Below are positions 3,078 through 23,906 of a stretch of 32,000 nucleotides of DNA, one piece after another. Position 1 is the stretch's first letter. Every line of letters starts with the position of its first letter. Location: NCBI RefSeq assembly GCF_017876815.1, contig NZ_JAGIOS010000001.1:2010001-2042000 (forward strand), given 5' to 3'. Source of the stretch: Sinorhizobium meliloti. GTDB lineage: Bacteria > Pseudomonadota > Alphaproteobacteria > Rhizobiales > Rhizobiaceae. The position numbers and the translations under genes were made by a program. Under the pieces are notes generated by a model. It had not been told where the DNA came from, ran no database searches, and worked only from the letters and a program-made list of their open reading frames with translations.

Positions 3078-3379
3078 GAGTTAGGCGACGCGGGTGCGCG
3101 GCGTTAAGATTGACCGGGCCATGCGCTTCAATGCGCATGGCCCCGAAGGGCTGATCAATGGCAAGGCTCCCGGTCTGCCATCACGTTTGAACGATCACCA
3201 GCACGGAACTGGCTCTCAAACCGCATCGCAAAATCTACCAGGACATCGTCGCTCATTGCTGCGACGCCCGCCGCAAGCTCCAAAGTCAGCCTCGGCGCAT
3301 CATGTCCATCGGGCAGAGAATGGGCAAATAGGTCTTGATCAATGAGAGGCCGTATTGACCACAGAAATACAGAAATTGA

Positions 3380-3517
3380 GGAAGAACCCATTTATCTGCC
3401 AAGCGACAAGATGAACTCTTGCTCGCAGCCAGCGCGCAGAACCTCAGAAGGTTGGCAAAGCTCAGGCCTGGGCGTGAATGCCCACGCGAGTGCAGCAATA
3501 AATTTGCGAACCCCTAA
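3380..3517 (+). pseudogene. C-terminal remnant of an IS5/IS1182-type DDE transposase
   Basis: The frame reads ...RTHLSAKRQDELLLAASAQNLRRLAKL... The AAxQNLxRLAKL ending is typical of IS5/IS1182-group transposases. There is no start codon and no upstream catalytic domain, and in-frame stops lie upstream. Confidence 0.4.
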
Positions 3518-3886
3518 AACACCGCCCAGAGGCTCCGACCGCGCTCAAACTCGAAGTGTTTTCAAAGATATCCGCCCAGGAGCCGTGATTAAAAATCTAA
3601 CGGCCGTGCGAGTGCCGCGCGAAACCCCAAAAAACTCATAGTTGTATAGGAGCGACGAAAGGTTGTAGTTTGCCCATGCTTATTCGACCAATGCTTACCT
3701 AATGCTCTGAGTGGTGGACCTAGGTCGAAAAGGTCGAACTTTTGACGATAGCAGAAGGCCCGAGCCGTCGCCTAACGGCAGCAGGCTTCCATACTCACTT
3801 CTCGGTTCAGGCAATTTGGGATTGGCTTATTAAATCTCTGATGGTGCGATCGCTTCGATCGTCACATCGCTAACTGGAGCGTAAAA

Positions 3887-4471
3887 ATGGCAGATAGTTA
3901 TCTAAGGTACGGCGATACGTTGAGGATAGCCAACTCATACGGAGGACAGTTGAAGGGCGGCTATCTCGGTACTGGCGGGCCGTCGAACGTACCTGGTGCT
4001 GTGAGCACTGTTGGCGCCTATACGGACCCCAACAAGTTCACGCTATGGAAAATATTGCCGGGCGGCGATCAGAAACTTAGACAAGTCGTTAACAGTGGTG
4101 ATCGGATTCGCCTTAAAAATACCAGCGTTGAAGATACCAGCGATGAAAATACAAATTTGCTGGCATTATTCAGCTCCAAACCGGCGGCTACTAACGGTTA
4201 TCCCGTGGGTACCACCAATATTCTTGATGATGAAAGGATTACCCCCGCCTGGTACATCCTTGTTAGTACCCGAAGTGAAACCAATGATCCAGGTTTGGTC
4301 GACCGGAATGACATATTTTTGGTCGCTAGTTTTGGTCCACGGGCAAGCGTTTTGGACACCAACGGCGTAGGCAGTGGCGGTTTCAGATACGACGTCACGG
4401 GTGCCCGTCTCGTCAATCGTGACGGCGGAAGCGGCTCTTGGGTAGTGCAGACGTCATTGACGCCGGATTGA
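3887..4471 (+). CDS. hypothetical protein with three-fold internal repeat (beta-trefoil-like)
   Basis: ATG preceded by CTGGAG. There are three repeat units, each with a GD/ND-x-hydrophobic-x-hydrophobic strand (YGDTLRIAN, SGDRIRLKN, RNDIFLVAS) and ending in W-x-I/V (LWKIL, AWYIL, SWVVQ). No signal peptide. GC is clearly lower. Confidence 0.6.
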   Translation: MADSYLRYGDTLRIANSYGGQLKGGYLGTGGPSNVPGAVSTVGAYTDPNKFTLWKILPGGDQKLRQVVNSGDRIRLKNTSVEDTSDENTNLLALFSSKPAATNGYPVGTTNILDDERITPAWYILVSTRSETNDPGLVDRNDIFLVASFGPRASVLDTNGVGSGGFRYDVTGARLVNRDGGSGSWVVQTSLTPD

Positions 4472-4499
4472 ACGCGGGTAGCTTGTCGGATACTGTATA

Positions 4500-4536
4500 C
4501 GGGCCTCAGCTCAAGGTAGAGCGCGAGGCCCGTTTG
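4500..4536 (+). terminator. rho-independent terminator candidate after 3887..4471
   Basis: CGGGCCTC (4500-4507) pairs with GAGGCCCG (4525-4532). An inner GCTC/GAGC pairing extends the stem, and TTTG follows. Confidence 0.5.
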
Positions 4537-4608
4537 CCTGCTGAGGGACATGCGCCACCAAGGCGTAATATAAGGCGAACCTTTCGCACTAAGCAGTCAG
4601 TGCGACTG

Positions 4609-4863
4609 ATGCAAAAGGGAGGACATCATGAAGTGGACAAATGGCGACTGCCCCGTCTCAACGAGCCGGCGCAAGAGGCGTTGCCGAGATTGGGGGACTT
4701 CGCCGAGATCACCTGCCCTACCTGCGGTAGATTCAGGATCACCCGCACTGCTTTAGAGATGATCCGTGGTCGGGATCTTGATGGCAGGCAGTTCGCGCTT
4801 ACTCAGGCGAAGCGCAAAGCGCTGGAAGGCAAAATACCGGTGATCGACAGTTACATGCTGTGA
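4609..4863 (+). CDS. small hypothetical protein (single CxxC)
   Basis: ATG at 4609; an alternative GTG at 4633 lies 9 nt after GGAGGA. The stop overlaps the start of the lipoprotein gene (GTGATG), suggesting an operon. No family recognised. Confidence 0.35.
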   Translation: MQKGGHHEVDKWRLPRLNEPAQEALPRLGDFAEITCPTCGRFRITRTALEMIRGRDLDGRQFALTQAKRKALEGKIPVIDSYML

Positions 4864-5117
4864 TGCGAACGGTGCGGAAGCTATCGTTCATTTTGCTTGG
4901 AGCCGTGCTGGCAGGCTGCAACAGTTCATCATCAAGCGAGTGGCGCGAGGTCAAGACCAGCTCTTACGAGTCGCGTTTCGAACGTGCGAAGGCCATCTGC
5001 AACGGGCGAGCCGCTCAAACGCAGGTCATCGCCGGAAGGCTCTGGATTGCCGGTGCAATCGCAGCAAACAGCTCGTTTAACGCCTGTATGGCGGAACAAG
5101 GGTTCGCGCCCAAGTGA
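4860..5117 (+). CDS. lipoprotein
   Basis: MMRTVRKLSFILLGAVLAGC has a basic n-region, a hydrophobic core and an L-A-G-C lipobox, followed by a Ser-rich linker. Confidence 0.65.
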   Translation: MMRTVRKLSFILLGAVLAGCNSSSSSEWREVKTSSYESRFERAKAICNGRAAQTQVIAGRLWIAGAIAANSSFNACMAEQGFAPK

Positions 5118-5118
5118 G

Positions 5119-5286
5119 CTAGCAGCCCGCCGAATTGCGCCTGAAGATCAACACCCACTGACACGGGCTGCGCTCGATTACCTGGTGGAGCGCATACCCC
5201 GCGGCCGCCTTTTCATTGATGAAGGCTCGCATGCTCTTGAGGTTGTCTGGGCCGGTATCGAAGTGCTCGGCTAGGTATTCGGGCAT
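5119..5286 (-). CDS. small hypothetical protein (55 aa, not in ORF track)
   Basis: Minus-strand ATG at 5286 lies 6 nt after GAGGAG. The translation is MPEYLAEHFDTGPDNLKSMRAFINEKAAAGYALHQVIERSPCQWVLIFRRNSAGC. It fills an otherwise empty gap, and the style is reminiscent of DUF4177-type small proteins (recollection only). Confidence 0.35.
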   Translation of the reverse strand: MPEYLAEHFDTGPDNLKSMRAFINEKAAAGYALHQVIERSPCQWVLIFRRNSAGC

Positions 5287-5499
5287 CCGCATCTCCTCAA
5301 GGCTACGGCCTCGCGATTGAGCTACTGCGCTCTCAGTGGGTCCCCTTTGCCCTCGCGTTCGACCGACGAGACTGCGGCGGCTGTATCGTCGTCCGACACT
5401 TCAGGTCGAAGCAGCATGCCGTTCGCATCGTTGCTCCGTTTGTTGATGATCGTTCAGATTGCACTTGCGCTGCGACTTGATAACATGTTCGTCTGGCGT

Positions 5500-7236
5500 A
5501 TGGGGGCGAAAGTGACTGTGTTGCGTATCGTTTTGCTGGCATTGGTCGCATGCGTGTGGCTCACCTTGTCTGCGCGGGCGGAGATTATCCTTCAGCGCAT
5601 CGATACCGATCGCGGTGTCGTCATTCTCCTCAAGGGGGCGTTCGCCCTCGCGGACGATCCACAGGCGCTAGCCCGAGAGGTTTCCGCCACAGGAGCAAAG
5701 GTTATCACCTTCGACAGCGATGGCGGAAATGTCGTCTCCGCTATCGCCTATGGTCGGGTTATTCGGTCGCTGGGTCTCTCCAGTTTTCAGCCGCGTGCCA
5801 CGCAGTGCGTTTCCGCCTGTGCGTTAGCGTTCGTGGGCGCCGTTATCCGACATGCTGAACCCGGCTCCATCGGCGTGCACCAATCGTCATTCTCGGCGAA
5901 CGCTGTTCTGGATGGCCATACAGCAGTCGCTGCGGTACAGCAGATGACCGCGCAGATAATGACGTATCTGCTTGAGATGGGCGTCGACCCGAAGCTCCTG
6001 CAACTCAGCCTGTCGGTGGCACCCAACGATATGCGGTACCTGACAGCAGCCGAAATGGACGAATACAATGTGACGGCGGGGCTACAAAACGCCGTTCCCG
6101 AAACACTACCTGACACCACAATGACACCCTCGGACGAAACCACCGCTCACGAGGAAGAAGAAAGGCCCCTCACAAATGAAGACAGGGCCCTAGCGTTTGT
6201 CTCTGCCTATTACCAGGCGTGGTCGCTGGGAAATGCGGAGGCGCTCGTGTTTATGGATCGGGCATATAACGAGACAGTGAGCTTCTACGGGAAACCAAGG
6301 TCGCGGATTTATGTTGTCGACGAGAAGGTGAAGTTCGTCATGCGCTGGCCGGTCCGGGCCTACAACGTCAAGCCGGGCACCGCTACGGTCTCATGCGCCG
6401 CCTACTGCGTTGTTGCAGGGATCGTCGACTGGTACGCGAGGCGTGATGTCGGGTACGGAGTATCATCCGGCTCGGCGCGTTTCCTGATCTCGTGGGACCC
6501 CTCAACACAGAAGATTGCTTCCGAGAGCGGTGAAGTGCTGGATGTGGACAAGGATGCTGTGGCTCCGGTCCGCGTCCTATCTCAGTGGTACGATCAGAAT
6601 GCTGTTTGCCGCGGGACCGTCGACAACACCGAAAGGACACAGGCGGCCTGTACATATCGAGAAGTGATTGCAGCGAAGTTGAAGGCCGTCGGCTGGTGCT
6701 ACGCGGGCGAAGGCCAGGCCGCATATCAGACGGACTGGCATAAATGCGATATCACGGGATCGAGCTTCGCGAATGGGAGCCTTGCATCGAAGGCAGATTT
6801 CCCACGCCCCGCGCGATATGCGGTGACGGAGCGTTTCACCGGCCGAACTAAGCTTCCAGATTTCCGCGGGAGAGACCGAAAGTTCAACTCGTTCCGCACC
6901 CGAATCCGCAACGGCATGCGCGAAGGCCCCAACTTTGCGGGGCATTTCTCTGTGATCCAGATTGGATGCGGAACTGGGTGTACCTTTGCAATTGTCGGGG
7001 ACAATAACAGCGGAAGACCAGCCAATTTCCCGCGCGGCGGTGAGGAAAATATGTACATGCAGCTTCACTTCGAGATAGGAAGCCGCCTTCTAGCAGCGCA
7101 GTGGCTCGACTATAAAGCCAATAAGTGCTTCGTTGAGTTCTTTGACTACAACCGCAAGAAGTGGGAACTGATTAGTAAGCTCGATGTCGGATCGTCTGAT
7201 GCATGCTACCGGACCGTGGCCGAAAACCTGCGCTGA
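5500..7236 (+). CDS. exported multidomain protein: COG3904-like (ClpP/NfeD-fold) periplasmic domain plus unknown C-terminal domains
   Basis: The track ORF starts at TTG 5317. I prefer ATG 5500, which gives a classic signal peptide (MGAKVTVLRIVLLALVACVWLTLSARA|E). DSDGGNVVSAIAYGRVIRSLG...CVSACALAFVGAVIRHAEPGSIGVHQ resembles predicted periplasmic ClpP-like proteins. The start is uncertain (5317, 5416 or 5500). Confidence 0.6.
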   Translation: MGAKVTVLRIVLLALVACVWLTLSARAEIILQRIDTDRGVVILLKGAFALADDPQALAREVSATGAKVITFDSDGGNVVSAIAYGRVIRSLGLSSFQPRATQCVSACALAFVGAVIRHAEPGSIGVHQSSFSANAVLDGHTAVAAVQQMTAQIMTYLLEMGVDPKLLQLSLSVAPNDMRYLTAAEMDEYNVTAGLQNAVPETLPDTTMTPSDETTAHEEEERPLTNEDRALAFVSAYYQAWSLGNAEALVFMDRAYNETVSFYGKPRSRIYVVDEKVKFVMRWPVRAYNVKPGTATVSCAAYCVVAGIVDWYARRDVGYGVSSGSARFLISWDPSTQKIASESGEVLDVDKDAVAPVRVLSQWYDQNAVCRGTVDNTERTQAACTYREVIAAKLKAVGWCYAGEGQAAYQTDWHKCDITGSSFANGSLASKADFPRPARYAVTERFTGRTKLPDFRGRDRKFNSFRTRIRNGMREGPNFAGHFSVIQIGCGTGCTFAIVGDNNSGRPANFPRGGEENMYMQLHFEIGSRLLAAQWLDYKANKCFVEFFDYNRKKWELISKLDVGSSDACYRTVAENLR

Positions 7237-7331
7237 GAAGAGCTCGTCCGCCAATGCTGACTACCAATGTCGTTGCACGTTTGATACGCGCCGCGAACGA
7301 CGTTGGTCGTCCGACCAGAGCTAACCGGATA

Positions 7332-7406
7332 AAGGCTCAGCCCGAACCGGTAATAAAGCCAGACGGCATGAGCAACGATTTCGATCGGGAAGCGATGGTT
7401 CCTGTA
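7332..7406 (-). pseudogene. N-terminal fragment of an IS6-family transposase
   Basis: The minus-strand translation YRNHRFPIEIVAHAVWLYYRFGLSL matches the conserved RHRFPxEIIxHAVWLYxRFxLS opening of IS6-family transposases. Similarity stops abruptly after LSL, and there is no start codon or DDE domain. Confidence 0.4.
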
Positions 7407-7587
7407 GGTGGCGCATGCTTCGACCCTGCGCCACCTACTATCGTCAAACCGTTAAGCCAAAATCAAATGACAGCACCGGTCGGCGACATGTCCGGCACTG
7501 CGGCGACAAAGAAGCGCAGTGCCAAGGCCGGCCCCATCCGGCGGGGCCGGCCGAAAGGCAGCCTTGAAAAAGACGGCTGCCAAGACA

Positions 7588-7615
7588 GGAGGGCAGGCTT
7601 AACGGCCTGCCCTCC
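7588..7615 (-). terminator. hairpin immediately downstream of the 7621..8598 gene
   Basis: Perfect 11-bp stem GGAGGGCAGGC / GCCTGCCCTCC with a 6-nt loop. It starts 5 nt after the stop codon. On the minus strand it is followed by TGTCTT, so the U-tract is weak. Confidence 0.45.
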
Positions 7616-7620
7616 GAGAT

Positions 7621-8598
7621 TCAGCGGGCCGGAAGTTGTCCGATTTCCTCGCGCTCCGGTGCGGCGATCACTTTGTCAGGCTTCTCCTGGGCTTGCGCCG
7701 AAGGCTGGTTGCAGCAGCTGTCGAAAACAGTCTTTGCGCGCTCGGTGGCTGCGGCTCTTTCTGCACCGCTCAGTTCGTTGTATGGCTCCGTCTCGAAAGA
7801 GAATTTGCCGGAATCGAATGCCTCCCCATTGGATTGTTGGGCGACCATGGACCACATGGCCGATGTAGTCATGTCTTTTTGCCCGTAGGCGCTGAGGCCG
7901 GTCAGCAAGGCGGCAAGCTGGGCGCCTCTCAGATTTCCCTGTTCAGTCAGATGCACCGCTTCGCTCAGCCAATCCTTGTAAACGGCGGGATCGACGTCGA
8001 AGGCCTTGTTGGCAAGCTTGGCTTCGGCCCGGGCGGCATCTAGGGCGCGGAAATCCTCGAACAGGACAATGCCCTTGGCATTGACATCCCCCGCAGCCGC
8101 GGCTTCGCGCAGCAAATCGCCGGAATTGCGGATGTCTTCCGCGGTGACACCGCTGCACTGCACCTCCATCGTGCGAATCTTGAAAGCGGTGGCGGCGACA
8201 AGATCTTCGAAGTTCCTGTCGCCGCTTTTTTCCAGTTTTGCGGCATCGGCCAGATCCTGGTCGTGATGGCTCCGAGATTCGAAATAGTCGGCGCATCCCC
8301 GCGCCAGAATCGCTGCGCCGTAGGCGGGATGCCCCCCGTAATCCTTGGCCTGCAATGCATATTGCGCCGGATCCAACAGATCAAATCGAACGGGAGCTTG
8401 AGGGTCGGCAGCCAACTCCTCATTGTTGGATATGAGGATTTGATTCGGGATCGCAGGAGATTGCTGCTGGGAAATCTGTGGCAACACCTCGGCCATTGCT
8501 GCAATTCCATCCGACTGGACCGCCAAAGCTGTAAGCGATACGAGAAGGACGCGCAGCAATTTCTTTTTGCCTGTTGCCTTTGAGTCGTAGATCGGCAT
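7621..8598 (-). CDS. exported hypothetical protein
   Basis: The internal ATG at 8598 gives MPIYDSKATGKKKLLRVLLVSLTALAVQSDGIAAMAE, which is signal-peptide-like. The body is helical and Ala-rich, with faint Sel1/TPR-like repeats. The track ORF extends to 8673. Confidence 0.55.
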   Translation of the reverse strand: MPIYDSKATGKKKLLRVLLVSLTALAVQSDGIAAMAEVLPQISQQQSPAIPNQILISNNEELAADPQAPVRFDLLDPAQYALQAKDYGGHPAYGAAILARGCADYFESRSHHDQDLADAAKLEKSGDRNFEDLVAATAFKIRTMEVQCSGVTAEDIRNSGDLLREAAAAGDVNAKGIVLFEDFRALDAARAEAKLANKAFDVDPAVYKDWLSEAVHLTEQGNLRGAQLAALLTGLSAYGQKDMTTSAMWSMVAQQSNGEAFDSGKFSFETEPYNELSGAERAAATERAKTVFDSCCNQPSAQAQEKPDKVIAAPEREEIGQLPAR

Positions 8599-8674
8599 TT
8601 TTTTATCCTTGGATTTTGACGCCAGCCCACTGCTTTCAATGGGCCGGCCGAAGATTCGAACGGGCAAATGCAAT

Positions 8675-15209: not shown

Positions 15210-16646
15210 ATGAAACTTGTCAGCGACTTCAATGATTTTGTGATCGATACAGTCAACCTCAATCAAACTCGCTTAGACCGGCTTGAAGAGCGGATCGAAA
15301 CCATCAAGGATTTCATCAGAGGTTCTGAGTGGGAGCCGCGGATATCCACCTTCATCGAGCAGGGATCCTGGGCCCACGACACCATCATTCGCCCTGTAGA
15401 TGGGGGAGAATTCGACGCCGACCTTCTGGTGAAGGTGTACCCCGTAGAAGGGTGGAGCGCTGCCCAGTACGTCAAGGAGCTCGGGCGGCTCTTCTTAGAC
15501 AGCGGGAGGTACGGCGACAAAACGGTAGTCTATGACTACTGCGTCACGATCACATACGCGGACGACTGCAAGATCGACATTGCTCCCTTGGTCATGGACC
15601 GCGAGTACCAGGGCACTCTTGAGGTCTGCAACAAGCGCAAGGACGCGTTCGAAGGTTCACAGCCGGTTGAGTACACGCGGTGGATGCGTGAAAAGAATGG
15701 TTATTCGGGCAACAACTCATTCCGCAAAGCCACCAGGCTGATCAAGTATATTAGGGACATCAAGAAGCGTTTTAGCTGTCAGTCCGTTCTTCTGACGACG
15801 CTTATCGGTCACCGCATCGAGTGGTTCGATAAAGACTCCGGTGCGTTTTCCGATACGCCAAGCGCCCTGCAGACGATCATAGGCCGCTTGGACGACTGGT
15901 TGCAGGCACACCCAAACAAGCCGGAGGTGCCCAATCCGGCGCTCCCATCCCAGGATTTCGCCGACCTCTGGAATGACACCCAGTATGCTAATTTCCGGAA
16001 CTTCGTGCACAAGTACCGAAAATGGATCGACGAAGCTTTCAACGCGGCGACCCGATCCGAGAGCATCGAGAAATGGCGCAAAGTCTTCGGCGACGAGTTC
16101 GCCAAGGGTGAGAACGTGAAAAAGGCCGAGGCGACCGCCATACAGCGCACGAGCGCCTTGCTGATGGAAGGAGCTGCCCACCTCGACAGCCTCGTCGATA
16201 ACGTGATCGACTTCGGCATCACCATCCTGCCCTCTTGGTTCAAAACACCCGCACATATGCAGCCCCCACGCTGGCGACCTGCACAACATGTTTCCCGCAA
16301 CGTTCAAGTATCTGCCGAATACGCTTTTCAAAGAACGGGTAGAGCCTATTCGATCAACTCTGGAGAGGCGGTGCCGCCGCGCGGCGGCTTGTGGTTCGAC
16401 GTGAGAGTCAACAAGTTCCAGATGGTGCCAAGTGACTGCTACGTCCGATGGCGCATCACCAATACTGGCGCAGTTGCTATGGCGCTCAAGAAAGGACGGG
16501 GCGGTTTCGAGCGGCCCATTGAAGGCAATCGTCGTTGGGAAGAGCTGGAATATCGCGGCGTTCACATGGCCGAGGCATTTATCATCCGAATAATCGACGA
16601 TCGTCTGGTTGGTTACAGCGAACCATTCTACGTGGTCATCGGATAG
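15210..16646 (+). CDS. Pol-beta/SMODS-type nucleotidyltransferase with C-terminal beta-rich sensor-like domain (AGS-C-like)
   Basis: ATG 15210 lies 7 nt after AAGGGGG. The NTase signature is G52-S53 (QGSWAHDTIIRP), D69-A-D71 (EFDADLLV) and D123 (CKIDIAPL). This is followed by the helical region typical of CD-NTase/SMODS proteins (YTRWMREKNG...ATRLIKYIRDIKK). The last roughly 130 aa form a separate domain (...YVRWRITNTGAVAMALKKGRGGFE...). Confidence 0.8.
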   Translation: MKLVSDFNDFVIDTVNLNQTRLDRLEERIETIKDFIRGSEWEPRISTFIEQGSWAHDTIIRPVDGGEFDADLLVKVYPVEGWSAAQYVKELGRLFLDSGRYGDKTVVYDYCVTITYADDCKIDIAPLVMDREYQGTLEVCNKRKDAFEGSQPVEYTRWMREKNGYSGNNSFRKATRLIKYIRDIKKRFSCQSVLLTTLIGHRIEWFDKDSGAFSDTPSALQTIIGRLDDWLQAHPNKPEVPNPALPSQDFADLWNDTQYANFRNFVHKYRKWIDEAFNAATRSESIEKWRKVFGDEFAKGENVKKAEATAIQRTSALLMEGAAHLDSLVDNVIDFGITILPSWFKTPAHMQPPRWRPAQHVSRNVQVSAEYAFQRTGRAYSINSGEAVPPRGGLWFDVRVNKFQMVPSDCYVRWRITNTGAVAMALKKGRGGFERPIEGNRRWEELEYRGVHMAEAFIIRIIDDRLVGYSEPFYVVIG

Positions 16647-16696
16647 ATCGTGGGGACGCTGGTGGCAACAATCGAAATGATAGGCTACTGCAAGTC

Positions 16697-17560
16697 ATGG
16701 TAAGAACCATTGCAGATGCGTTTCGTGTTCTGCGCAGCAATCTTGAAATAACGGACCTGCAGGAGCAGACGGTTGCGAGCCGTCAGAAAGCAATCCGCGA
16801 GGTTCTGGCGCGCGATTTCATAATCAAGGACACGTTTCTCACGGGATCATACCGCCGCAGCACCATGATCAGGCCACTGAAAGAGGCTGACGTCGATATC
16901 TTCATTGTCCTAGATCTGAAATATTACCGCGATGATGGAAAGCGGACCCTTCTCGAGAGCATCAAGAAGTCGCTTCGCAAGACATATACCAAGACGCCCG
17001 ACATCCGGCCGGACGGTTCGGCCGTGACTGTCACCTTCACCGATTTCAAGGTCTACGTAGTGCCAGCCTTCTACCGCCAGGGTGGCGGCTACCTCATTCC
17101 CAGCCTCGAGCTGAACAAATGGATATCCACGGATCCGAAAAAGCATGTGGAGATTTGGACGGCAGCCAATAAGGCGCACAACGACGACCTCGTGCCGTTG
17201 ATTAAGATGATCAAGGGGTGGAATAAGAGCCGGAATCTCTTCAAGTCCTTCCATCTGGAGACGCTGATCCTGAAAGCGCTTGACGGCGTCACTATCACTG
17301 ATTACCCGTCTGGCATGCGCTACGTCTTCGACAAAGGCATTACGCTAGTGCAGTACAAACTGGCTGATCCGGCCGGCTATAGTGGTGACGTCGGGGCGCA
17401 CGTGGAAACGAAAGCCAAGATCCAGCTCCTCGTGGACCGCCTGATCTGGGCGCGAGATCGGGCGAAGGAAGCCGAAGCCATGGCGGCAGACGGCAACGTC
17501 GCGAACGCAATCGACAAATGGCGTCTAATCGTGCCCTCCTATTTTCCTAGATTTGGCTGA
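16697..17560 (+). CDS. second SMODS/CD-NTase-like nucleotidyltransferase (minimal, 287 aa)
   Basis: FLTGSYRRSTMIRPLKEADVDIFIVL contains G50-S51 and D65-V-D67. Downstream come ...FKVYVVPAF... and TDPKKHVEIWTAANKAHNDDLVPLIKMIKGWNK, as in minimal bacterial cyclic-oligonucleotide-synthase-like NTases. The position of the third catalytic acid reads Tyr (Y120). Confidence 0.8.
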   Translation: MVRTIADAFRVLRSNLEITDLQEQTVASRQKAIREVLARDFIIKDTFLTGSYRRSTMIRPLKEADVDIFIVLDLKYYRDDGKRTLLESIKKSLRKTYTKTPDIRPDGSAVTVTFTDFKVYVVPAFYRQGGGYLIPSLELNKWISTDPKKHVEIWTAANKAHNDDLVPLIKMIKGWNKSRNLFKSFHLETLILKALDGVTITDYPSGMRYVFDKGITLVQYKLADPAGYSGDVGAHVETKAKIQLLVDRLIWARDRAKEAEAMAADGNVANAIDKWRLIVPSYFPRFG

Positions 17561-17564
17561 CACT

Positions 17565-18500
17565 ATGCAGAACCAGATTCCGGTCCGGCAGGACGAAGAG
17601 GTACAGCTGAAGCTACTGCGGGCGCGAACGCGCACTTATACGGTTGCGACCCGCTTGATGGTGCTACAGCTATGCCTGACAGTGTTAGTTCCGGTCGTGG
17701 GGGCATTCTGGGGCGCAGCTGATCCGCAAGTGAGACCCTACTTCACCCTATTGGCATTGATGGTGCTTCTACTCGATCCGCTTTGGATCGACCGGCAATA
17801 CAAGGCAACTCTGAAACGTGCTGCGAAAATAGCGGAGCAGTTCGACTGTACCGTGCTGGAGATCGGATGGAACCCTTTCGTGGTGGGTGATCGGGTCGAG
17901 GCCGAAGACATTCACCGCGCGGCGACAAAATACAAGTCTGGTCACGACGACAGCCAACTGACAGGCTGGTATCCTAAGGCCGCCGGCGGCGTTCCGCTCC
18001 ACTTGGCGCGGTTTATTTGCCAGAGGACCAACCTCCGATACGACAGCGAGTTACGCCGGCACTACGCATCAATCTTATCCGGGCTGGCGGCTGCCGTAGC
18101 TGCAATTGTCGTGGTGCTCGGGATCGTGCAGCAGCTCACCCTACAGGAATGGGTGCTGAATATTGCGCTGCTGAGCCCACTGCTCAGTTGGTCGATCAGG
18201 GAATTCTACCGACAGCGAGATACGGCGGATCAACAGCAAGATCTCATGAAATCTGCTAAAAAACTGTGGGAACGGTGCCTCGAGGTAGATGGCATTGAGG
18301 ATGAAGCTACCGTCAAAGCACGGGAATTTCAGGACGCCATCTATGCACGCCGCGTGTCCAGCCCGCTGGTAATCCCTCTTGTCTACAAGTTCCTACGCCC
18401 CGGTCTGGAAGACGAAATGAACGAGGCTGCCAGTGACTTCTTGGCTCAATATACAGAGCGCAGCAGCCAGGACCTAACGGCAGCTCTTGCGAAACTATAA
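17565..18500 (+). CDS. four-TM membrane protein, candidate effector (S-4TM-like)
   Basis: The start is ATG 17565 (4 nt after the NTase stop) or TTG 17553 (8-nt overlap). There are two TM hairpins: LMVLQLCLTVLVPVVGAFWG / YFTLLALMVLLLDPLWI, and ILSGLAAAVAAIVVVLGIV / WVLNIALLSPLLSWSI. A soluble insert of about 95 aa separates them, and a soluble tail of about 95 aa follows. Confidence 0.8.
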   Translation: MQNQIPVRQDEEVQLKLLRARTRTYTVATRLMVLQLCLTVLVPVVGAFWGAADPQVRPYFTLLALMVLLLDPLWIDRQYKATLKRAAKIAEQFDCTVLEIGWNPFVVGDRVEAEDIHRAATKYKSGHDDSQLTGWYPKAAGGVPLHLARFICQRTNLRYDSELRRHYASILSGLAAAVAAIVVVLGIVQQLTLQEWVLNIALLSPLLSWSIREFYRQRDTADQQQDLMKSAKKLWERCLEVDGIEDEATVKAREFQDAIYARRVSSPLVIPLVYKFLRPGLEDEMNEAASDFLAQYTERSSQDLTAALAKL

Positions 18501-18798
18501 TACAAACTGCGACGACCGAAATGGGGAGCGAAGCCGTCTTTCAGTAATCGAACCTTTCGTGTCTGCAATAGGAGGAGCCCCGCTTGAACATAGTTCTAGA
18601 TGTGAGCTTTCAGGAGGTTGAGGGGGTGGCCCCCCTGTGATCGGAATCTCGGCAAAGCATGCATATTTCCAGGTCGCTGCGTTGATTGAAAATTTTCTTG
18701 TCATTTGACAGAGCGTGACCGAAAAGCTTATGAAGCAGCTATATCCCCGTCATAGCCACTAGATATAGGAAGCGCCAGCCCGATCGGCGCTCGATGCG

Positions 18799-19167
18799 AT
18801 GCCTCGACTCCGCGCTTTGCAAGCAAACATTTCAACGGTGGCGCCGCTGGTCGGCTACGCCTCCGACGGTGCCGACAAGAAGCGGCGGACCTTCCAGCCA
18901 TGGCGCGCTTGGTACAATACCGCCGCGTGGGAGGACCTGCGCCAAGCCGTGTTCCTCCGCGACAATTATATATGCCAGCGCACGGGCGAGCTTTGCACTG
19001 GAACGGCGCCGGCCCCGAATAGTCCCGTCGCCCACCATAAGACCCCGCATCGAGGCAATCCCAAACTCTTTTGGGATATCGACAATATCGAGACCGTATC
19101 CAAGCGGGTGCACGACTCCGAAATCCAACGTGAAGAACAGGCCATCCCCCGCGGCCAATGGGATTGA
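18799..19167 (+). CDS. phage HNH endonuclease (packaging-associated type)
   Basis: FQPWRAWYNTAAWEDLRQAVFLRDNYICQRTG...VAHHKTPHRGNPKLFWDIDNIETVSKRVHDS matches the HNH motif and context of HK97-like phage HNH proteins. Confidence 0.8.
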   Translation: MPRLRALQANISTVAPLVGYASDGADKKRRTFQPWRAWYNTAAWEDLRQAVFLRDNYICQRTGELCTGTAPAPNSPVAHHKTPHRGNPKLFWDIDNIETVSKRVHDSEIQREEQAIPRGQWD

Positions 19168-19171
19168 CGAC

Positions 19172-19255
19172 ATGCCCTTACATCTTGCGTTCTCGGTGCT
19201 GATCATCGTCGGCGCTCTGATCATCTTCGTGCTCGTCACCGGCATCGCCCCATAG
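19172..19255 (+). CDS. possible 27-aa single-TM peptide
   Basis: MPLHLAFSVLIIVGALIIFVLVTGIAP starts 4 nt after the HNH stop. It is too short to judge. Confidence 0.2.
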   Translation: MPLHLAFSVLIIVGALIIFVLVTGIAP

Positions 19256-19460
19256 GTGGAAAGTTCAGAAGAAGGCCCCCTGCCGACCATCCGCGCACTG
19301 TCATCACGCCAGCCTTCTTCGACTTGCCGGTCGCTGCCACGCAGGCGAGGCCGCTGACAAGTTCCTCGTCGGCAACTTCCAGCAGGCGGCGCTCTTTTAT
19401 CATGGGGCCGCGCGAACACGCCGACAGAAACCTCATCGCAGTCTCGGCTGAGTAGAGCAT
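19236..19460 (-). CDS. possible small ORF downstream of the membrane-protein pair
   Basis: 74-aa ORF, co-directional and beginning about 75 nt after the 19536 stop. The composition is not convincing, no RBS was seen and no family is recognised. Confidence 0.2.
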   Translation of the reverse strand: MLYSAETAMRFLSACSRGPMIKERRLLEVADEELVSGLACVAATGKSKKAGVMTVRGWSAGGLLLNFPPMGRCR

Positions 19461-19535
19461 CGGCCTTGCGTCAAGCAGTCGCGAGCGTTCACCTTCGGCG
19501 ATTTCGGAAACGTGGCCTGTAAGGTGTTTTGACGG

Positions 19536-20006
19536 TCAGCTTAGGAAAGCCCAAATGGCGCACATGAACCGAATACCGGCGAAAGTCACGAAGATAAGGG
19601 GCACCGTACTGAGGATGGCAACCTCCTTGGAACGAACGAGGTTTACGCTCGGCGCGCGCGTCGGTAGAGTGGCCAATGCATAAACGGCGCTTCCTAAGGC
19701 AGCCACGGAAAATGCGGCGGCGAGCCTGAGAAAAGCCAGAGTGTACGGGTCAAGGGCAGTAGGTGTGAGTGCAACGAATGCGCCAACACCGGCAACAATG
19801 ATTGAAGCGCTTGTGATCGCCCCGTTAAGCTGAGCCAATATTACTGACGCCCCTAGATTGCGCTCATCCACGTCGTCCCTTGTGCCGGGTGGCTGACAAC
19901 CTCTCCATGTGGCCCAAACGCTTCTGAACCAAAACGCCCCCACGATAGCGTCGACGACCGGCCACCTCGTAAGAAACAAGGTTAAGTCAGCAACGGAAGC
20001 TGACAT
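19536..20006 (-). CDS. integral membrane protein (about 4 TM)
   Basis: 156 aa with hydrophobic segments VVDAIVGAFWF, SIIVAGVGAFVAL, LRLAAAFSVAALGSAVYAL and ILSTVPLIFVTFAGIRFMCAIWAF. The ATG directly abuts the stop of the upstream gene (TAG-ATG). Confidence 0.6.
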   Translation of the reverse strand: MSASVADLTLFLTRWPVVDAIVGAFWFRSVWATWRGCQPPGTRDDVDERNLGASVILAQLNGAITSASIIVAGVGAFVALTPTALDPYTLAFLRLAAAFSVAALGSAVYALATLPTRAPSVNLVRSKEVAILSTVPLIFVTFAGIRFMCAIWAFLS

Positions 20007-20543
20007 CTATTTCTCCCCGGTCAGTTTGTCGGTGTCGAAGATGTACTTGGAATACTCCGCTTCGTTCGTTGGGAGATCGACACCCGAAGAAGCGTAGGCT
20101 GCGCTTCCCAGTTCTTCTATACGATCCGGAAGTTCTCTTGCAGCTGGCCCGACGGCCTCGCGAATAGCTTCCCTAACGGCGGCATTGTAGAAGGCGGGCG
20201 CTTGCAGGGGCCAAGATGCCTCGACCAATGGCGGTTTGTTGTTTGGCCAGATACATTGGATCGATAGAGCGGCTAAGAAATCTACCTCACCAGGCTCTTT
20301 CCGATTATTGCTGTTGGCAACAGTAATAGCGACTTCGTTGGTTGCCGCGAGAAATCCCAAATATTTTCCGACATCATCCGGTCCAGCATTATTCCAGTCG
20401 ATACTTAGCCGTTTGGAAATCGGAAACTTCAAAGCCAGCTGTTGCAGCTGTTCCGGTATAATTGCCGGTCCGTTCTCTTGAGCAAACGCGGCGCCTCCAA
20501 CGGAGGACGCGAGCAAAATAACTGTAACGACGTGTTTTCGCAT
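20007..20543 (-). CDS. exported hypothetical protein
   Basis: ATG 20543 lies 7 nt after GGAGG. The signal peptide is MRKHVVTVILLASSVGGAAFA|QE. The track ORF extends to 20741 through Arg/Pro-rich sequence. GC is lower than in the phage backbone. Confidence 0.6.
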   Translation of the reverse strand: MRKHVVTVILLASSVGGAAFAQENGPAIIPEQLQQLALKFPISKRLSIDWNNAGPDDVGKYLGFLAATNEVAITVANSNNRKEPGEVDFLAALSIQCIWPNNKPPLVEASWPLQAPAFYNAAVREAIREAVGPAARELPDRIEELGSAAYASSGVDLPTNEAEYSKYIFDTDKLTGEK

Positions 20544-20935
20544 TGGGGCCCCTCCGGCTCGACGTAGCATACCGATCCCACTTTCGCTGATCGGCTCCGC
20601 ACACTGACACATCCTTGGCGCCTTATCGAGTGTCAACAACAACCTGGCGGTGCGTTGAGGCCAGAATTCCAGACTCGTGGATCCTTCGGGGGGGGTGGGT
20701 AAACGTCCGAGCGAGTGATTGAGGGGCCGGCCCCCGCGCAATTCGGAGATTTTTTTCGCGCGGCGGAAAAAACGAGAGCGGAAATGGAGGATTTTTAAAG
20801 TCCATCATGGAAAACGCCGAAGATTGGGCGCCATAAGGTCGAGAGGCGGGCTGTATCGGTCCTTCAGGCTTTTGACCAGCAGATCGGCGCGACCTCGCCG
20901 GGCCGCGTGACCTCCGGGGTCGACAGGACAGACGA

Positions 20936-21319
20936 TCAGACGATCCGGATAAGCATTCGGCCGGGATATTGCCCGGCGGTGACATGGAGAAGCAGCGGGC
21001 TGTCGTTGGCGACCGCATTGCGGATGACTTCGGCGGCGATGAACTCGACTTCATTAATGCAGCCGTAGCTGGCTTTCTCGTCCAACCAGAGGCTGAAAGG
21101 CATGGTCTCGGGATTGTGTTCCAAGGCATGGACGACGGCGGGCTTTTCGCCCGCGTCCAGATTGGCATTGTGCATCAGGTAGACGCCATAATCGCAGCGC
21201 AGCCAAAAGCCCGGCTCGGGAGCATCCTGGTGCCAAAGGGCGCGCTGCCCCTTCGACCAGCTTGCCTCGGCGGATTTGAGCAGGTCGCGCAATTGCGCGA
21301 CTGGGAAAGTCAGTAGCAT
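20936..21319 (-). CDS. hypothetical phage protein (DUF3085-like by recollection)
   Basis: ATG 21319 lies 9 nt after GGAG. The sequence includes GFWLRCDYGVYLMHNANLDAGEKPAVVHALEHNPETMPFSLWLDEKASYG. This is a plausible compact globular protein with phage-like GC. Confidence 0.55.
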   Translation of the reverse strand: MLLTFPVAQLRDLLKSAEASWSKGQRALWHQDAPEPGFWLRCDYGVYLMHNANLDAGEKPAVVHALEHNPETMPFSLWLDEKASYGCINEVEFIAAEVIRNAVANDSPLLLHVTAGQYPGRMLIRIV

Positions 21320-21497
21320 TGTTGGGTGCTCCATTCATAGCATGCGGAAAGCACGCCTGCGCCGCTCGGGGCCTCGCATCCGATTTCTTGCCCGCCCTCG
21401 GCTGGTGTGCAAACCGCGCGAGCGCATGATTGCCGACGATAACCATACCGGCGGGTAAAATCATAGCGGTCATCCGGCCTCTCCGGTCGCGCCGGTT

Positions 21498-21740
21498 TTA
21501 CTCGGCCCGTGCCGCGTTGCGCTGCGCCTCAAGGGCGGTGACCGCGAAGTTCCGGTATTTGTTCGTCGCCTTCGGCGAGAAGGAAACCGGATTGATCGGG
21601 AAGGCCTTTAAGGGTTGATATCGCCCTTTTCGCCCCCGGACGAGGAAAAGCGATGCGGTGAATTTGACCGCGTAGGCTTCCGGCGAGGTCAGGTCGGGGT
21701 GGTCTTTTAGGTCCTTCCTTGGTTTTTGCCGGCCCCTCAT
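21498..21740 (-). CDS. small hypothetical protein
   Basis: 80-aa basic ORF, divergent from terS. No family recognised. Confidence 0.35.
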   Translation of the reverse strand: MRGRQKPRKDLKDHPDLTSPEAYAVKFTASLFLVRGRKGRYQPLKAFPINPVSFSPKATNKYRNFAVTALEAQRNAARAE

Positions 21741-21819
21741 TGGCGCGTGCTCAACACCTATAGAGACCGGGGTCGGGAGTTATCACTAAGTGGTTGTTGT
21801 TGCAGTAAAACGGTAAGCC

Positions 21820-22221
21820 ATGAGCAAGCGAAAACAAGCCGGCCGGCCGCCGCATGAGCCGAGCGAAAAAGATCGGAAAATGGTTGAGGTCCTATCGGGC
21901 TTCGCGGTGCCGACGAAGCATATAGCCGAGGTCGTGGGGATCACTCAGGCCACGCTATTCAAGCACTATCGGGACCAGCTGCGGCGCGGCGGCGCGCTCG
22001 TTCAGGCCAAGCTGGTCGCCAATCTCCTGCGGATCGCCAGCGGCAGCGATGGCACGGCGTTGAAGGCAATCACCTTCGCGCTGCAATGCCGCTTCGGCTG
22101 GTCGCAATATGTCCCGCGCCCGGATGGTGAGCGCGATCGGCCGCCGGGCAAGAAGGAAATTCAGCAGCGCGAGGCCGAAACCGCGCATACCGAATCCGAT
22201 TGGGGCCGGCTGTTGAATTGA
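21820..22221 (+). CDS. terminase small subunit (HTH type)
   Basis: 133 aa immediately upstream of, and overlapping, terL. The HTH-like segment is PTKHIAEVVGITQATLFKHY. The sequence is of the type found at this position in alphaproteobacterial HK97-like prophages. Confidence 0.6.
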   Translation: MSKRKQAGRPPHEPSEKDRKMVEVLSGFAVPTKHIAEVVGITQATLFKHYRDQLRRGGALVQAKLVANLLRIASGSDGTALKAITFALQCRFGWSQYVPRPDGERDRPPGKKEIQQREAETAHTESDWGRLLN

Positions 22222-23906
22222 CCGGCTGGAACTTCGCCTGCCCGGATTGGGAGCAACGGCTCCTTGCCGGTAAATCGCTGATCCCGGATTTGCCGCTGGA
22301 CGAGGCCGAGGCGGCCCGCGCCGTCGATATCTTCAATAAGCTCCGCTTGCCCGATGTGCCCGGCCAGCCGCTCCTGCGCGAGGCGGCCGGCGAATGGCAG
22401 CGCGATATCGTCCGCGCCATCTTCGGTTCAATGGTCGGCGACACGCGCATGGTGCAGGAGCTTTTCTGCATGGTGCCGAAAAAGAACAACAAGACGACCG
22501 GCGGCGCCGGGGTCTCGTTGACCGCCTTGCTGATGAATTCCCGGCCGCATGCCGAATTCATCTATGTGGGGCCGACGCATGAGGTCTCCGACCAAGCCTT
22601 TCAGCAGGCGGTCGGGATGATCGAGGCCGACGATTATCTAAGCAAGCGGTTCCATATCGCGCACCATACGAAGACGATTCTGGACCGGCGCAACAAAGCC
22701 CGGCTCAAGGTCAAGACCTTCGACATGAAGGTCGTCACCGGCTCCAAGCCGATTTTCGTGTTGCTGGACGAACTGCACCTTATGTCGTCCATGGCCGCCG
22801 CCGCCCGGATCATCGTCCAGATTCGCAACGGCATGCCGGCGCCGGAATCGGTGCTGGTCATGATCACCACGCAATCGGACGAGCCGCCGGCCGGGGCATT
22901 CAAGACGGAACTCCGATATGCGCGCGGCGTCCGCGACGGCCGGATCAAAGAAAGCCGTATGCTGCCGATCCTCTATGAATTCCCGGAGGAGATGCAGCGC
23001 AGCGGCGCGTGGCGCGATCCGGCGGTCTGGCCGCTGGTCAATCCGAACCTCGGCCGCTCGATCACGCTCGAAAAGCTGAAATCGAGCTATCAGGCGGCAG
23101 TCGAAAAAGGCGACGAGGATCTGCGCCTATGGGCGTCGCAAAGGCTGAACGTCGAAATCGGCGTCGCCCTGCATGACGACCGCTGGCTCGGCGCCGATTA
23201 TTGGGAAAGCGCGGCCGATCCGTCGATCACGCTCGACTCGCTGATCGCCGAGTCCGATGCCATCGTTTTCGGCATCGATGGCGGCGGGCTGGACGATCTA
23301 TTCGGGCTGGCGGCGATCGGCCGTTGCAAGCGCAATCGCAGTGAATGGCGGCTCTGGTCGCATGCCTGGGCGCACAAGGATGTGCTCTCCCGGCGAAAGG
23401 AAATCGCCGACCGGCTGCATGACTTTCAGCGCGACGGCGATCTAACCATTTGCGAGACGCCGACGCAGGATTTCGAGGAAGTCGCCGACATCATCGCCCG
23501 CGTCCGGGATACCGGGCTGTTGCCCGAAAAGGCCGGCGTCGGCCTCGATCCGGTCGGCGTCGCCAACATGGTCGATGCGCTGGCGGTGCGCGGCATCACT
23601 GGCGATCAGGTCGTCGCGATCCCGCAGGGCTACCGCCTTTCGGGCGTCATCCAAGGCACAGAGCGCAAATTGAAGGACGGCACGCTTTGGCACGCTGGCG
23701 CGCCGCTCATGGCGTGGTGCGTCGGCAATGCAAAGGTCGAACAACGTGGGAATGCGGTGCTGATTACCAAGCAAGTCGCGGGCAAGGCGAAAATTGACCC
23801 GCTCGTCGCCGCCTTTGATGCGGCCATGCTGATGAGCAAGAACCCCGAGGCGGTCGGGGCGGGCATGGATAGCTATTTCCTAAGCCTCGCAGGGGCAGCG
23901 GCGTGA
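22200..23906 (+). CDS. terminase large subunit
   Basis: 568 aa. The opening (TGWNFACPDWEQRLLAGKSLIP), the ATPase region (VGPTHEVSDQAF...IFVLLDELH) and the C-terminal nuclease region (FGIDGGGLDDLFG) are typical of phage TerL. The start could alternatively be TTG 22218, overlapping the terS stop. Confidence 0.9.
   Translation: MGPAVELTGWNFACPDWEQRLLAGKSLIPDLPLDEAEAARAVDIFNKLRLPDVPGQPLLREAAGEWQRDIVRAIFGSMVGDTRMVQELFCMVPKKNNKTTGGAGVSLTALLMNSRPHAEFIYVGPTHEVSDQAFQQAVGMIEADDYLSKRFHIAHHTKTILDRRNKARLKVKTFDMKVVTGSKPIFVLLDELHLMSSMAAAARIIVQIRNGMPAPESVLVMITTQSDEPPAGAFKTELRYARGVRDGRIKESRMLPILYEFPEEMQRSGAWRDPAVWPLVNPNLGRSITLEKLKSSYQAAVEKGDEDLRLWASQRLNVEIGVALHDDRWLGADYWESAADPSITLDSLIAESDAIVFGIDGGGLDDLFGLAAIGRCKRNRSEWRLWSHAWAHKDVLSRRKEIADRLHDFQRDGDLTICETPTQDFEEVADIIARVRDTGLLPEKAGVGLDPVGVANMVDALAVRGITGDQVVAIPQGYRLSGVIQGTERKLKDGTLWHAGAPLMAWCVGNAKVEQRGNAVLITKQVAGKAKIDPLVAAFDAAMLMSKNPEAVGAGMDSYFLSLAGAAA

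Follow-up and report, generated by a model that had tools for sequence, protein, structure and literature searches.

How is an immune cassette with two different nucleotidyltransferases and a single membrane effector to be understood? The question is raised by three same-strand (+) open reading frames (ORF1, ORF2 and ORF3) at 15210-18500 of a Sinorhizobium meliloti prophage; the window, by which we mean the whole stretch of 32,000 nucleotides analysed (positions 2,010,001 to 2,042,000 of contig NZ_JAGIOS010000001.1, assembly GCF_017876815.1), is DNA of this prophage. A sequence-only reading had seen two nucleotidyltransferases (NTases), one of them fused to a sensor-like domain, followed by a protein with four transmembrane (TM) helices, and had taken the three genes for an abortive-infection-type module of atypical architecture, CBASS-like (CBASS, cyclic oligonucleotide-based antiphage signalling system) or Hailong-like, carried as prophage cargo. 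We find that the cassette is a Type I CBASS, composed of SMODS cyclases and a TM effector without ancillary genes, and that its architecture, two cyclases and one effector, is real, recurrent and, as far as we could find, appears undescribed.

All three proteins were matched by profile models of Pfam (SMODS, AGS_C and S_4TM) and of PADLOC, the PADLOC CBASS matches running from end to end, with sequence and domain similarities far beyond chance. In ORF1, SMODS covers aa 1-163 (E=1.5e-39) and AGS_C aa 349-477 (E=4.5e-14), and the PADLOC CBASS cyclase model PDLC00793 matches over the full length (E=4e-186); its score against the NCBIfam CBASS equivalog models is 58 bits, under their cutoffs (200). 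An AlphaFold (AF2) model of ORF1 (mean predicted local distance difference test score, pLDDT, 76.9; with weak stretches N-terminally, over aa 52-66 and along the linker aa 298-324) superposes over its first ~330 residues on CdnD, CdnC, CdnB and CdnG (Foldseek E ~1e-10; TM-score on target 0.55-0.69), and the 50 best matches of the PDB fold search are all CD-NTases (nucleotidyltransferases of the cGAS/DncV-like kind). The C-terminal ~120 residues are modelled with confidence as an all-beta domain (pLDDT ~90). ORF1 is a B/G-like CD-NTase with an Ig-like AGS-C domain. Its start at 15210 is supported, since every homologue begins MKLV and a ribosome-binding site, AAGGGGG at 15196-15202, lies 7 nt upstream. 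ORF2 matches Pfam SMODS (E=2.8e-27), PADLOC PDLC00823 over the full length (E=3e-98) and, at 200.2 bits, barely over the cutoff of 200, NCBIfam CBASS_cyclase_b; because its family profile matches Pseudomonas aeruginosa CdnD (PaCdnD, 6p82; E=2.7e-39), ORF2 is a clade-D-like CD-NTase. The Pol-beta signatures read by eye were borne out in both proteins: G52, S53, D69, D71 and D123 of ORF1 are intact and are invariant columns across 32 homologues, and G50-S51 and D65-x-D67 of ORF2 are invariant in its family.

ORF3 matches Pfam S_4TM over its full length (E=2.5e-78) and the PADLOC 4TM effector model PDLC00721 (E=1e-113). Its AF2 model (pLDDT 92.8) places helices at 12-52, 54-98, 145-188 and 193-240 in two hairpins, plus soluble helices, in agreement with the four TM helices first described; the hydrophobic cores (~31-47, 59-75, 172-188 and 195-211) make three strong segments and a weaker fourth. 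In the PDB, ORF3 has no sequence relative and no fold match at E<0.001 (best Foldseek E=0.07). Conserved basic motifs in the soluble parts (WYP, CQRxNLxYD and REFYRQRD) are candidate ligand-binding regions.

The cassette thus presents a CD-NTase with the signature GS...[DE]x[DE]...[DE], complete in ORF1 and with Tyr as the third acid in ORF2, and a recognised effector (ORF3, S_4TM) adjacent in the same operon, and 14994-18550 holds three genes only, with no Cap2/Cap3, HORMA/TRIP13 or QueC/TGT/OGG. PADLOC-type tools would call it CBASS Type I, and its components and class are already known. Two supposed departures from described layouts therefore fall away: to lack Cap2/Cap3 or HORMA/TRIP13 is what defines Type I CBASS, and ~40% of Type I CD-NTases have an AGS-C fusion (10.1101/2023.05.21.541620). 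In one respect the cassette does depart from Type I, which has one cyclase plus effector(s): it has two cyclases, of different clades. No description of two-cyclase CBASS operons was found in open-access full text, although figures or supplements of Burroughs 2015 or Millman 2020 might show some; to this extent the earlier view that the arrangement is uncharacterised stands.

To place this layout among its relatives, loci were gathered in two samples, one of 80 species-representative genome loci centred on ORF2 and one of 50 metagenome loci centred on ORF1 (loci are numbered L001 onwards; ORF1-type, ORF2-type and effector genes are written O1, O2 and 4TM). At 24 of the 80 ORF2-family loci there is a second SMODS gene, in the same orientation and no more than a few kb away, and at 13 of these 24 it belongs to the ORF1 family; among the metagenome loci, 8 of 50 have a gene of the ORF2 family and ~15 show a plain ORF1-4TM pair. 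The co-occurrence of the three genes thus extends well beyond the window, and O1, O2 and a single 4TM recur in four gene orders. The order O1-O2-4TM is that of the window, L001, L081, L093 and L095 and, with a 4TM of another subfamily (PDLC00724), of L002 and L083. The effector (PDLC00719) stands between the cyclases, O1-4TM-O2, in L010, L012, L013, L015, L023, L024, L025, L031, L032, L060, L085, L087 and L116; this order is found in Mesorhizobium, Rhizobium, Agrobacterium and Ensifer. L148 (Sphingosinicella) has the divergent order 4TM<-O2 / O1->, and in L144 (Cohaesibacter) O1-O2 is followed by a transposase fragment (DUF4096) at the expected effector position. Each cyclase family also occurs without the other: relatives of ORF2 most often occur as two-gene O2-4TM systems (L003-L006, L065 and others), and O1-4TM alone is common (L082, L086, L089-L092 and L149).

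The combination has been assembled or reshuffled repeatedly, because triads fall in three separate clades of the ORF2-family neighbour-joining tree, each with solo O2-4TM sisters, and identities between ORF1 proteins disagree with this tree (84% between clades A and C, 58% between A and B). Effectors are interchangeable: the 4TM subfamilies PDLC00721, PDLC00719 and PDLC00724 each occur beside O1 without O2, beside O2 without O1 and beside the two together, and in order of identity to ORF3, effectors that go with O2 (L065, 67%; L003/L004, 52%) interleave with effectors that go with O1 (L096, 48%; L092, 44%). In L002 the O1-O2 pair is retained (85% and 83% identity) and the effector has been exchanged for another subfamily. 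Both cyclases of nearly all two-cyclase loci carry the full GS/DxD/D set, the exceptions being ORF2 of the window and L067 (Lys in DxD). In three O1-4TM-O2 triads one cyclase is frameshifted or split and the other intact: O1 in L025:3765-5205 (Pannonibacter), and O2 in L032:6001-6864 (Ensifer) and L060:6001-6863 (Mesorhizobium). A 169-aa ORF downstream of O2 (L010 7017-7526) was considered as a second effector and rejected, as it has no TM segment, no family match and a non-coding-like composition. Cyclase pairs of another kind (small SMODS paralogues, PDLC00823 + PDLC00776) were also seen beside a single 4TM or 2TM/SLATT-like effector in L041, L047, L058/L059, L067, L068 and L078 (~5000-9000 of each locus), in Bradyrhizobium, Anaeromyxobacter, Bacillota, Acidimicrobiales and a Flavobacteriales metagenome-assembled genome.

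The third catalytic acid of ORF2, which the sequence-only reading had correctly found missing and had counted among the peculiarities of the architecture, has a different explanation. The third-acid motif KVDVVP of ORF2 aligns with VDAVPAF of PaCdnD and IDIAP of ORF1. All other full-length SMODS ORFs, ~100 from the 80 loci, have Asp at this position (two divergent paralogues have Glu instead). Close relatives with Tyr120 are limited to P0002 (97%) and P0001, which does not differ from the window; the S. meliloti alleles P0003 and P0004 (95-96% identical) have Asp120, and so has everything more distant. Judged by this distribution, D120Y, a single G-to-T change, is a private substitution of one S. 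meliloti allele lineage and not a design feature. It is real and not a sequencing error, because it is present in many independent assemblies: an NCBI S. meliloti protein with 100% identity to ORF2 is encoded on at least 22 contigs. In Pol-beta-fold NTases such as cGAS and DncV, losing the third metal-binding Asp should abolish catalysis, and ORF2-Y120 is probably catalytically dead. As a gauge of relaxed selection, the dN/dS (ratio of non-synonymous to synonymous rates) of ORF2 in the Y120 lineage is 0.47, versus 0.26 and 0.30, a value that rests on only 9 synonymous and 14 non-synonymous changes.

Two further copies are of note. The ORF2 of L143 (L143:224-1087, Logan SRR13017591), compared with window 16697-17560 and L139:8001-8864, is a mosaic: it is the island-type (L139) allele save at nt 780 and in a tract at ~nt 333-388, which is window-like and includes the Y120 codon; either two resident cassettes have undergone gene conversion or the assembly is chimeric. 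In S. meliloti L135:3068-4002 (GCA_000287495.1, Y120 allele), the S-4TM gene is broken into two ORFs (177 and 129 aa), and this effector is probably inactivated.

We consider it moderately probable that the triad represents two parallel sensor-synthases feeding one effector, that is, an OR gate. A temperate S. meliloti phage would then carry a Type I CBASS abortive-infection module that shields its lysogen from other phages. In the ancestral design, the ORF1-type and ORF2-type cyclases would each answer their own infection cue and each make a nucleotide signal; the shared effector ORF3 would accept the signal of either, which would widen the range of phages sensed, and activated ORF3 would permeabilise the inner membrane, presumably as a pore, and abort the infection. 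In the present allele, in which ORF2 would have lost its activity with the third metal-binding Asp, the working pair would most likely be ORF1 and ORF3, if their signals are compatible. This reading is the likeliest because each cyclase family occurs alone with the same effector subfamilies, and it is economical because effectors are exchanged freely between the families and the triad keeps one effector. The relay proposed in the sequence-only reading is not needed, as ORF1-type and ORF2-type each occur alone with the same 4TM subfamilies. Redundancy fits also because either cyclase is sometimes pseudogenised (O1 in L025; O2 in L032 and L060). Published results on AGS-C and CdnD-4TM support the idea that pairing cyclases widens the phage range: AGS-C-bearing Type I operons differ in phage range from those without AGS-C, and CdnD-4TM (CdnD12-4TM) is triggered by the scaffold domain of a prohead protease (10.1101/2023.05.21.541620).

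Several points weigh against the OR gate. The compatibility of the ORF1 and ORF2 signals is an assumption, S-4TM being without a solved structure, and the loci, gathered by pattern matching, do not amount to an unbiased census. L009 and L101 contain O2 and a 4TM fragment, then other sequence, then a complete O1-4TM pair, and some triads may be remnants of two adjacent systems and not designed units. Pseudogenised members are frequent, the ORF3 of L135 being added to the cyclases named above, and D120Y might mean that the whole cassette is decaying here.

It is possible, though unlikely, that such juxtaposition and decay explain the cassette as a whole, which would then be what is left of two independent Type I systems, O1-4TM and O2-4TM, that came to lie in one defence hotspot and of which one effector was later lost. 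Only one cyclase would talk to ORF3, and this would be ORF2, since the solo systems nearest to the triad's effector are O2-4TM pairs; D120Y would then leave the cassette without function or ORF1 as an orphan. The spacing of the genes, which proved exactly as first read, suits this explanation, as ORF2 and ORF3 are tightly coupled (a 4-nt gap or an 8-nt overlap) compared with the 50 nt between ORF1 and ORF2; so do the self-sufficiency of each cyclase family elsewhere and the partnership of the closest solo ORF3 relative (that of L065) with O2. Against it stand the assembly of O1, O2 and a single 4TM in at least three ORF2 clades and four orders, including one with the effector between the cyclases, and the O1-O2 pair that L002 keeps despite its effector swap. 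The visible decay (D120Y, the split effector of L135 and the split cyclases of L025, L032 and L060) is likewise to be set against signs of maintenance: dN/dS between the window and L001 is 0.13, 0.18 and 0.13 for ORF1, ORF2 and ORF3, which is purifying selection on all three; ORF1 and ORF3 retain every family-invariant residue; and at least 22 contigs keep a Y120 cassette whose ORF1 and ORF3 are intact.

The repeated and specific association of both cyclase families with a single effector could also point to cooperation: the cyclases might form a heteromer, the product of one might be sensed by AGS-C or by the other enzyme, a mixed signal might be made, or ORF2-Y120 might be a non-catalytic regulator of ORF1 or ORF3. 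AGS-C was reportedly predicted to be a ligand sensor by Burroughs and colleagues (Pfam description), which would suit a relay; it is present, however, in those ~40% of Type I CD-NTases without a second cyclase, and both cyclase families are found in two-gene systems without the other. The Y120 tract stands in two allele backgrounds (the window and L143), which could mean that it is maintained rather than accidental, but L143 may be an assembly chimera, and as both enzymes normally have complete active sites a pseudo-enzyme role would not be ancestral. Frequent pseudogenisation of one cyclase fits redundancy better than obligate cooperation, and we regard cooperation as decidedly doubtful. In a broader form of the idea, triads of ORF1-type, ORF2-type and single 4TM genes may be an unrecognised CBASS subtype whose cyclases are functionally integrated and not just redundant (hetero-complex, AGS-C relay or combinatorial signals). 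Y120 itself may be an adaptive inactivation, selected in the prophage copy to avoid self-triggering by the phage's own HK97-like prohead protease or capsid on induction. This is suggested because, at the places examined, Y120 lies in prophage (6 places shown of at least 22 contigs) and D120 in a non-prophage locus; the mosaic allele of L143, which may be chimeric, complicates it. Taken jointly, the integrated subtype and the adaptive substitution seem rather doubtful. The OR gate remains our preferred reading.

The three genes travel together. Other S. meliloti assemblies (L139-L142), and L081, contain a segment with 96.5% identity to window 14994-18550, and beyond this segment these loci have nothing in common with the window; the cassette moves as a single unit between prophage and unrelated locus (Table 1). 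The L139-L142 copy has D120; its neighbours are a tyrosine recombinase gene, ABC-3C-like CTD6/MC2 genes and a further element of the IS21 (insertion sequence) family. A Pelagibacterium genome (L001) carries all three genes at ~90% identity. The non-coding leader is presumed to hold a promoter; a scan of 14700-19000 with the sigma-70 consensus found no promoter, and no terminator after ORF3, its eight terminator-like matches being all intracoding. The other side of the boundary is drawn by the left flank: three S. meliloti plasmids carry segments with 94-96% identity to its part with the genes for a helix-turn-helix (HTH) regulator and phrog_21451 (window 13000-14965), the homology of these plasmid-borne relatives ends at ~14965, and in the plasmid collection the left flank 13000-14965 alone was matched. 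On one of the plasmids, pHRB800 (NZ_CP011000.1, L138:7001-8955), the flank segment is followed by unrelated TlpA, IS5 and a cluster for a ribosomally synthesised and post-translationally modified peptide. Other homes of the cassette resemble defence islands: the CTD6/MC2 and recombinase genes adjoin it in L139:40-6239, and in L148:5555-7061 an AbiEi/AbiEii pair comes directly after the ORF1-type gene.

Table 1. Coordinates of the CBASS cassette, its parts and neighbouring genes in the window
Feature	Position	Strand	Description
Mobile three-gene CBASS cassette	14994-18550	+	Unit of horizontal transfer; ~3.6 kb
Non-coding leader	14994-15209	+	Inside the conserved mobile unit; carries the ribosome-binding site
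ORF1	15210-16646	+	478 aa; CD-NTase fused to C-terminal AGS-C
ORF1 domains	16254-16640 (AGS-C)	+	SMODS core aa 1-163; helical lobe to ~aa 345; AGS-C all-beta aa 349-477
ORF2	16697-17560	+	287 aa; minimal clade-D-like CD-NTase; 50 nt after ORF1
ORF2 codon 120	17054-17056	+	TAC (Tyr) where the family has GAC (third catalytic Asp)
ORF3	17565-18500	+	311 aa; S-4TM membrane effector; 4 nt after ORF2
ORF3 alternative TTG start	17553	+	Overlaps the ORF2 stop; 8-nt overlap
HTH regulator	13727-14185		Phage gene upstream of the cassette
phrog_21451 gene	14441-14956		Phage gene upstream of the cassette
HNH endonuclease	18799-19167		Phage gene downstream of the cassette
IS21 element	9820-12410		Inserted in the prophage
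istB	9942-10679	-	IS21 gene
istA	10692-12242	-	IS21 gene

Phage genes lie on both sides of the cassette, which is prophage cargo as first proposed: the HTH regulator and phrog_21451 genes precede it, and HNH is followed by genes for the large terminase, the portal, an S78 protease and the major capsid protein, an HK97-like prohead protease and capsid. The impression that the cassette is poorer in G+C also held when measured (55.3%, against 59.4% in the left flank, 57.6% in the right flank and 62.6% in the structural genes). Isolated phage genomes matched neither 12800-23900 at the DNA level nor ORF1 at the protein level, and IMG/VR held a single distant ORF1 relative (36% identity, L131). Elsewhere in the prophage, the IS21 element is moving actively within the lineage, because its site is empty in the sister prophage L132 and L133 has a 100% identical copy at another position, after the HNH gene. 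Window 3353-5740 is another variable region, which the window does not share with the sister prophages L132 and L133. A block of ORFs on both strands at 3887-9601, which includes a 639-aa ORF at 5317-7236, has no Pfam, PHROG or PADLOC match, and the same holds for two minus-strand ORFs at 19536-20741, between HNH and the terminase; one of these (19536-20006, -), with its three hydrophobic segments, is a candidate membrane protein.

How Type I CBASS senses phages is the main question for this system, and the triad is a compact test bed for it: whether an AGS-C cyclase and a minimal CdnD-like cyclase recognise different phage cues, whether CD-NTases of different clades converge on a signal read by the same S-4TM effector, and what S-4TM binds. 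The natural pair of alleles, D120 in a chromosomal island and Y120 in a prophage, is a ready-made control, and it raises the issue of how prophages avoid the triggering of their own CBASS cargo. If the triad is merely redundancy or decay, the cassette is an ordinary Type I CBASS moron. It stands above an ordinary CBASS match in being conserved and mobile, while most of the departures first listed for it are definitional or allele-specific.

Among known systems, Panoptes and Hailong share with the cassette a nucleotide synthase beside a membrane effector, and they have suggested a guard role, in which a constitutive (oligo)nucleotide would hold the effector closed until phage sponges or nucleases remove it and trigger death. 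The layout of the operon, NTase plus TM protein, fits such a guard, and Panoptes offers a precedent for a second synthase that adjoins CBASS as a decoy maker: it pairs the mCpol OptS with the S-2TM-beta effector OptE, often next to CBASS, and its constitutive decoy nucleotide acts by negative regulation (PMC12657218). In contrast to Panoptes, with its mCpol, its own effector and its decoy, the cassette has SMODS synthases and an S-4TM effector, none of those features was seen, and the Pfam and PADLOC results contain no mCpol or S-2TM-beta match. The HalB/HalA logic of Hailong (Tan et al. 2025) is summarised in PMC13434031, according to which HalB makes a protein-primed oligo-dA, HalA is a tetrameric DNA-gated channel with a reported cryo-EM structure, and catalytic mutation of HalB is toxic. 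The likeness to Hailong lies in the NTase gene beside the gene of a multi-pass membrane effector and in the abortive infection outcome. ORF1 and ORF2, however, are bona fide CD-NTases, as are all their best PDB matches, and not HalB or mCpol. ORF3 is an S-4TM protein without a significant fold match, and no HalA/HalB similarity was found in a PDB library dated April 2026, later than the 2025 Hailong paper, the presence of HalA and HalB chains in that copy being unconfirmed. Of the two affinities first suggested, that to CBASS was upheld by the PADLOC models and S_4TM, and that to Hailong was not. Moreover, whereas HalB mutants are toxic in Hailong, the active-site substitution of ORF2 is tolerated: a guard or decoy role that depends on ORF2 catalysis is disfavoured because Y120 persists with intact ORF3 in many strains. 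As EcCdnD12-4TM behaves as positively activated, too, we hold a guard of the Hailong or Panoptes kind to be highly improbable.

Two other candidates are set aside by the domain and fold tests: Type II, III and IV CBASS are excluded, and with Pycsar, whose PycC has an adenylate/guanylate-cyclase fold, the cassette has AGS-C alone in common, the catalytic domain of ORF1 being SMODS and not a class III cyclase. The nearest relatives are Type I operons. As in the CdnD-4TM operons (EcCdnD12-4TM; Richmond-Buccola et al.), of which EcCdnD12-4TM is an experimentally validated and positively activated defence (10.1101/2023.05.21.541620), a clade-D-like CD-NTase is followed by a 4TM gene without accessory genes; unlike them, the unit has an additional upstream AGS-C cyclase of another clade, and its ORF2 has Tyr120. 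ORF1, with its SMODS core, helical lobe and all-beta AGS-C, resembles the Type I CD-NTase-AGS-C fusions of clades B, H and part of F/G, but it has no private effector and shares ORF3, and it is distant from the solved CdnB and CdnG (E ~1e-10). In VvCdnG09-CapV-Cap5 the minimal Type I layout is likewise expanded by duplicating one role (10.1101/2023.05.21.541620), and the cassette is its mirror image: there, one synthase serves two effectors; here, two synthases stand with one.

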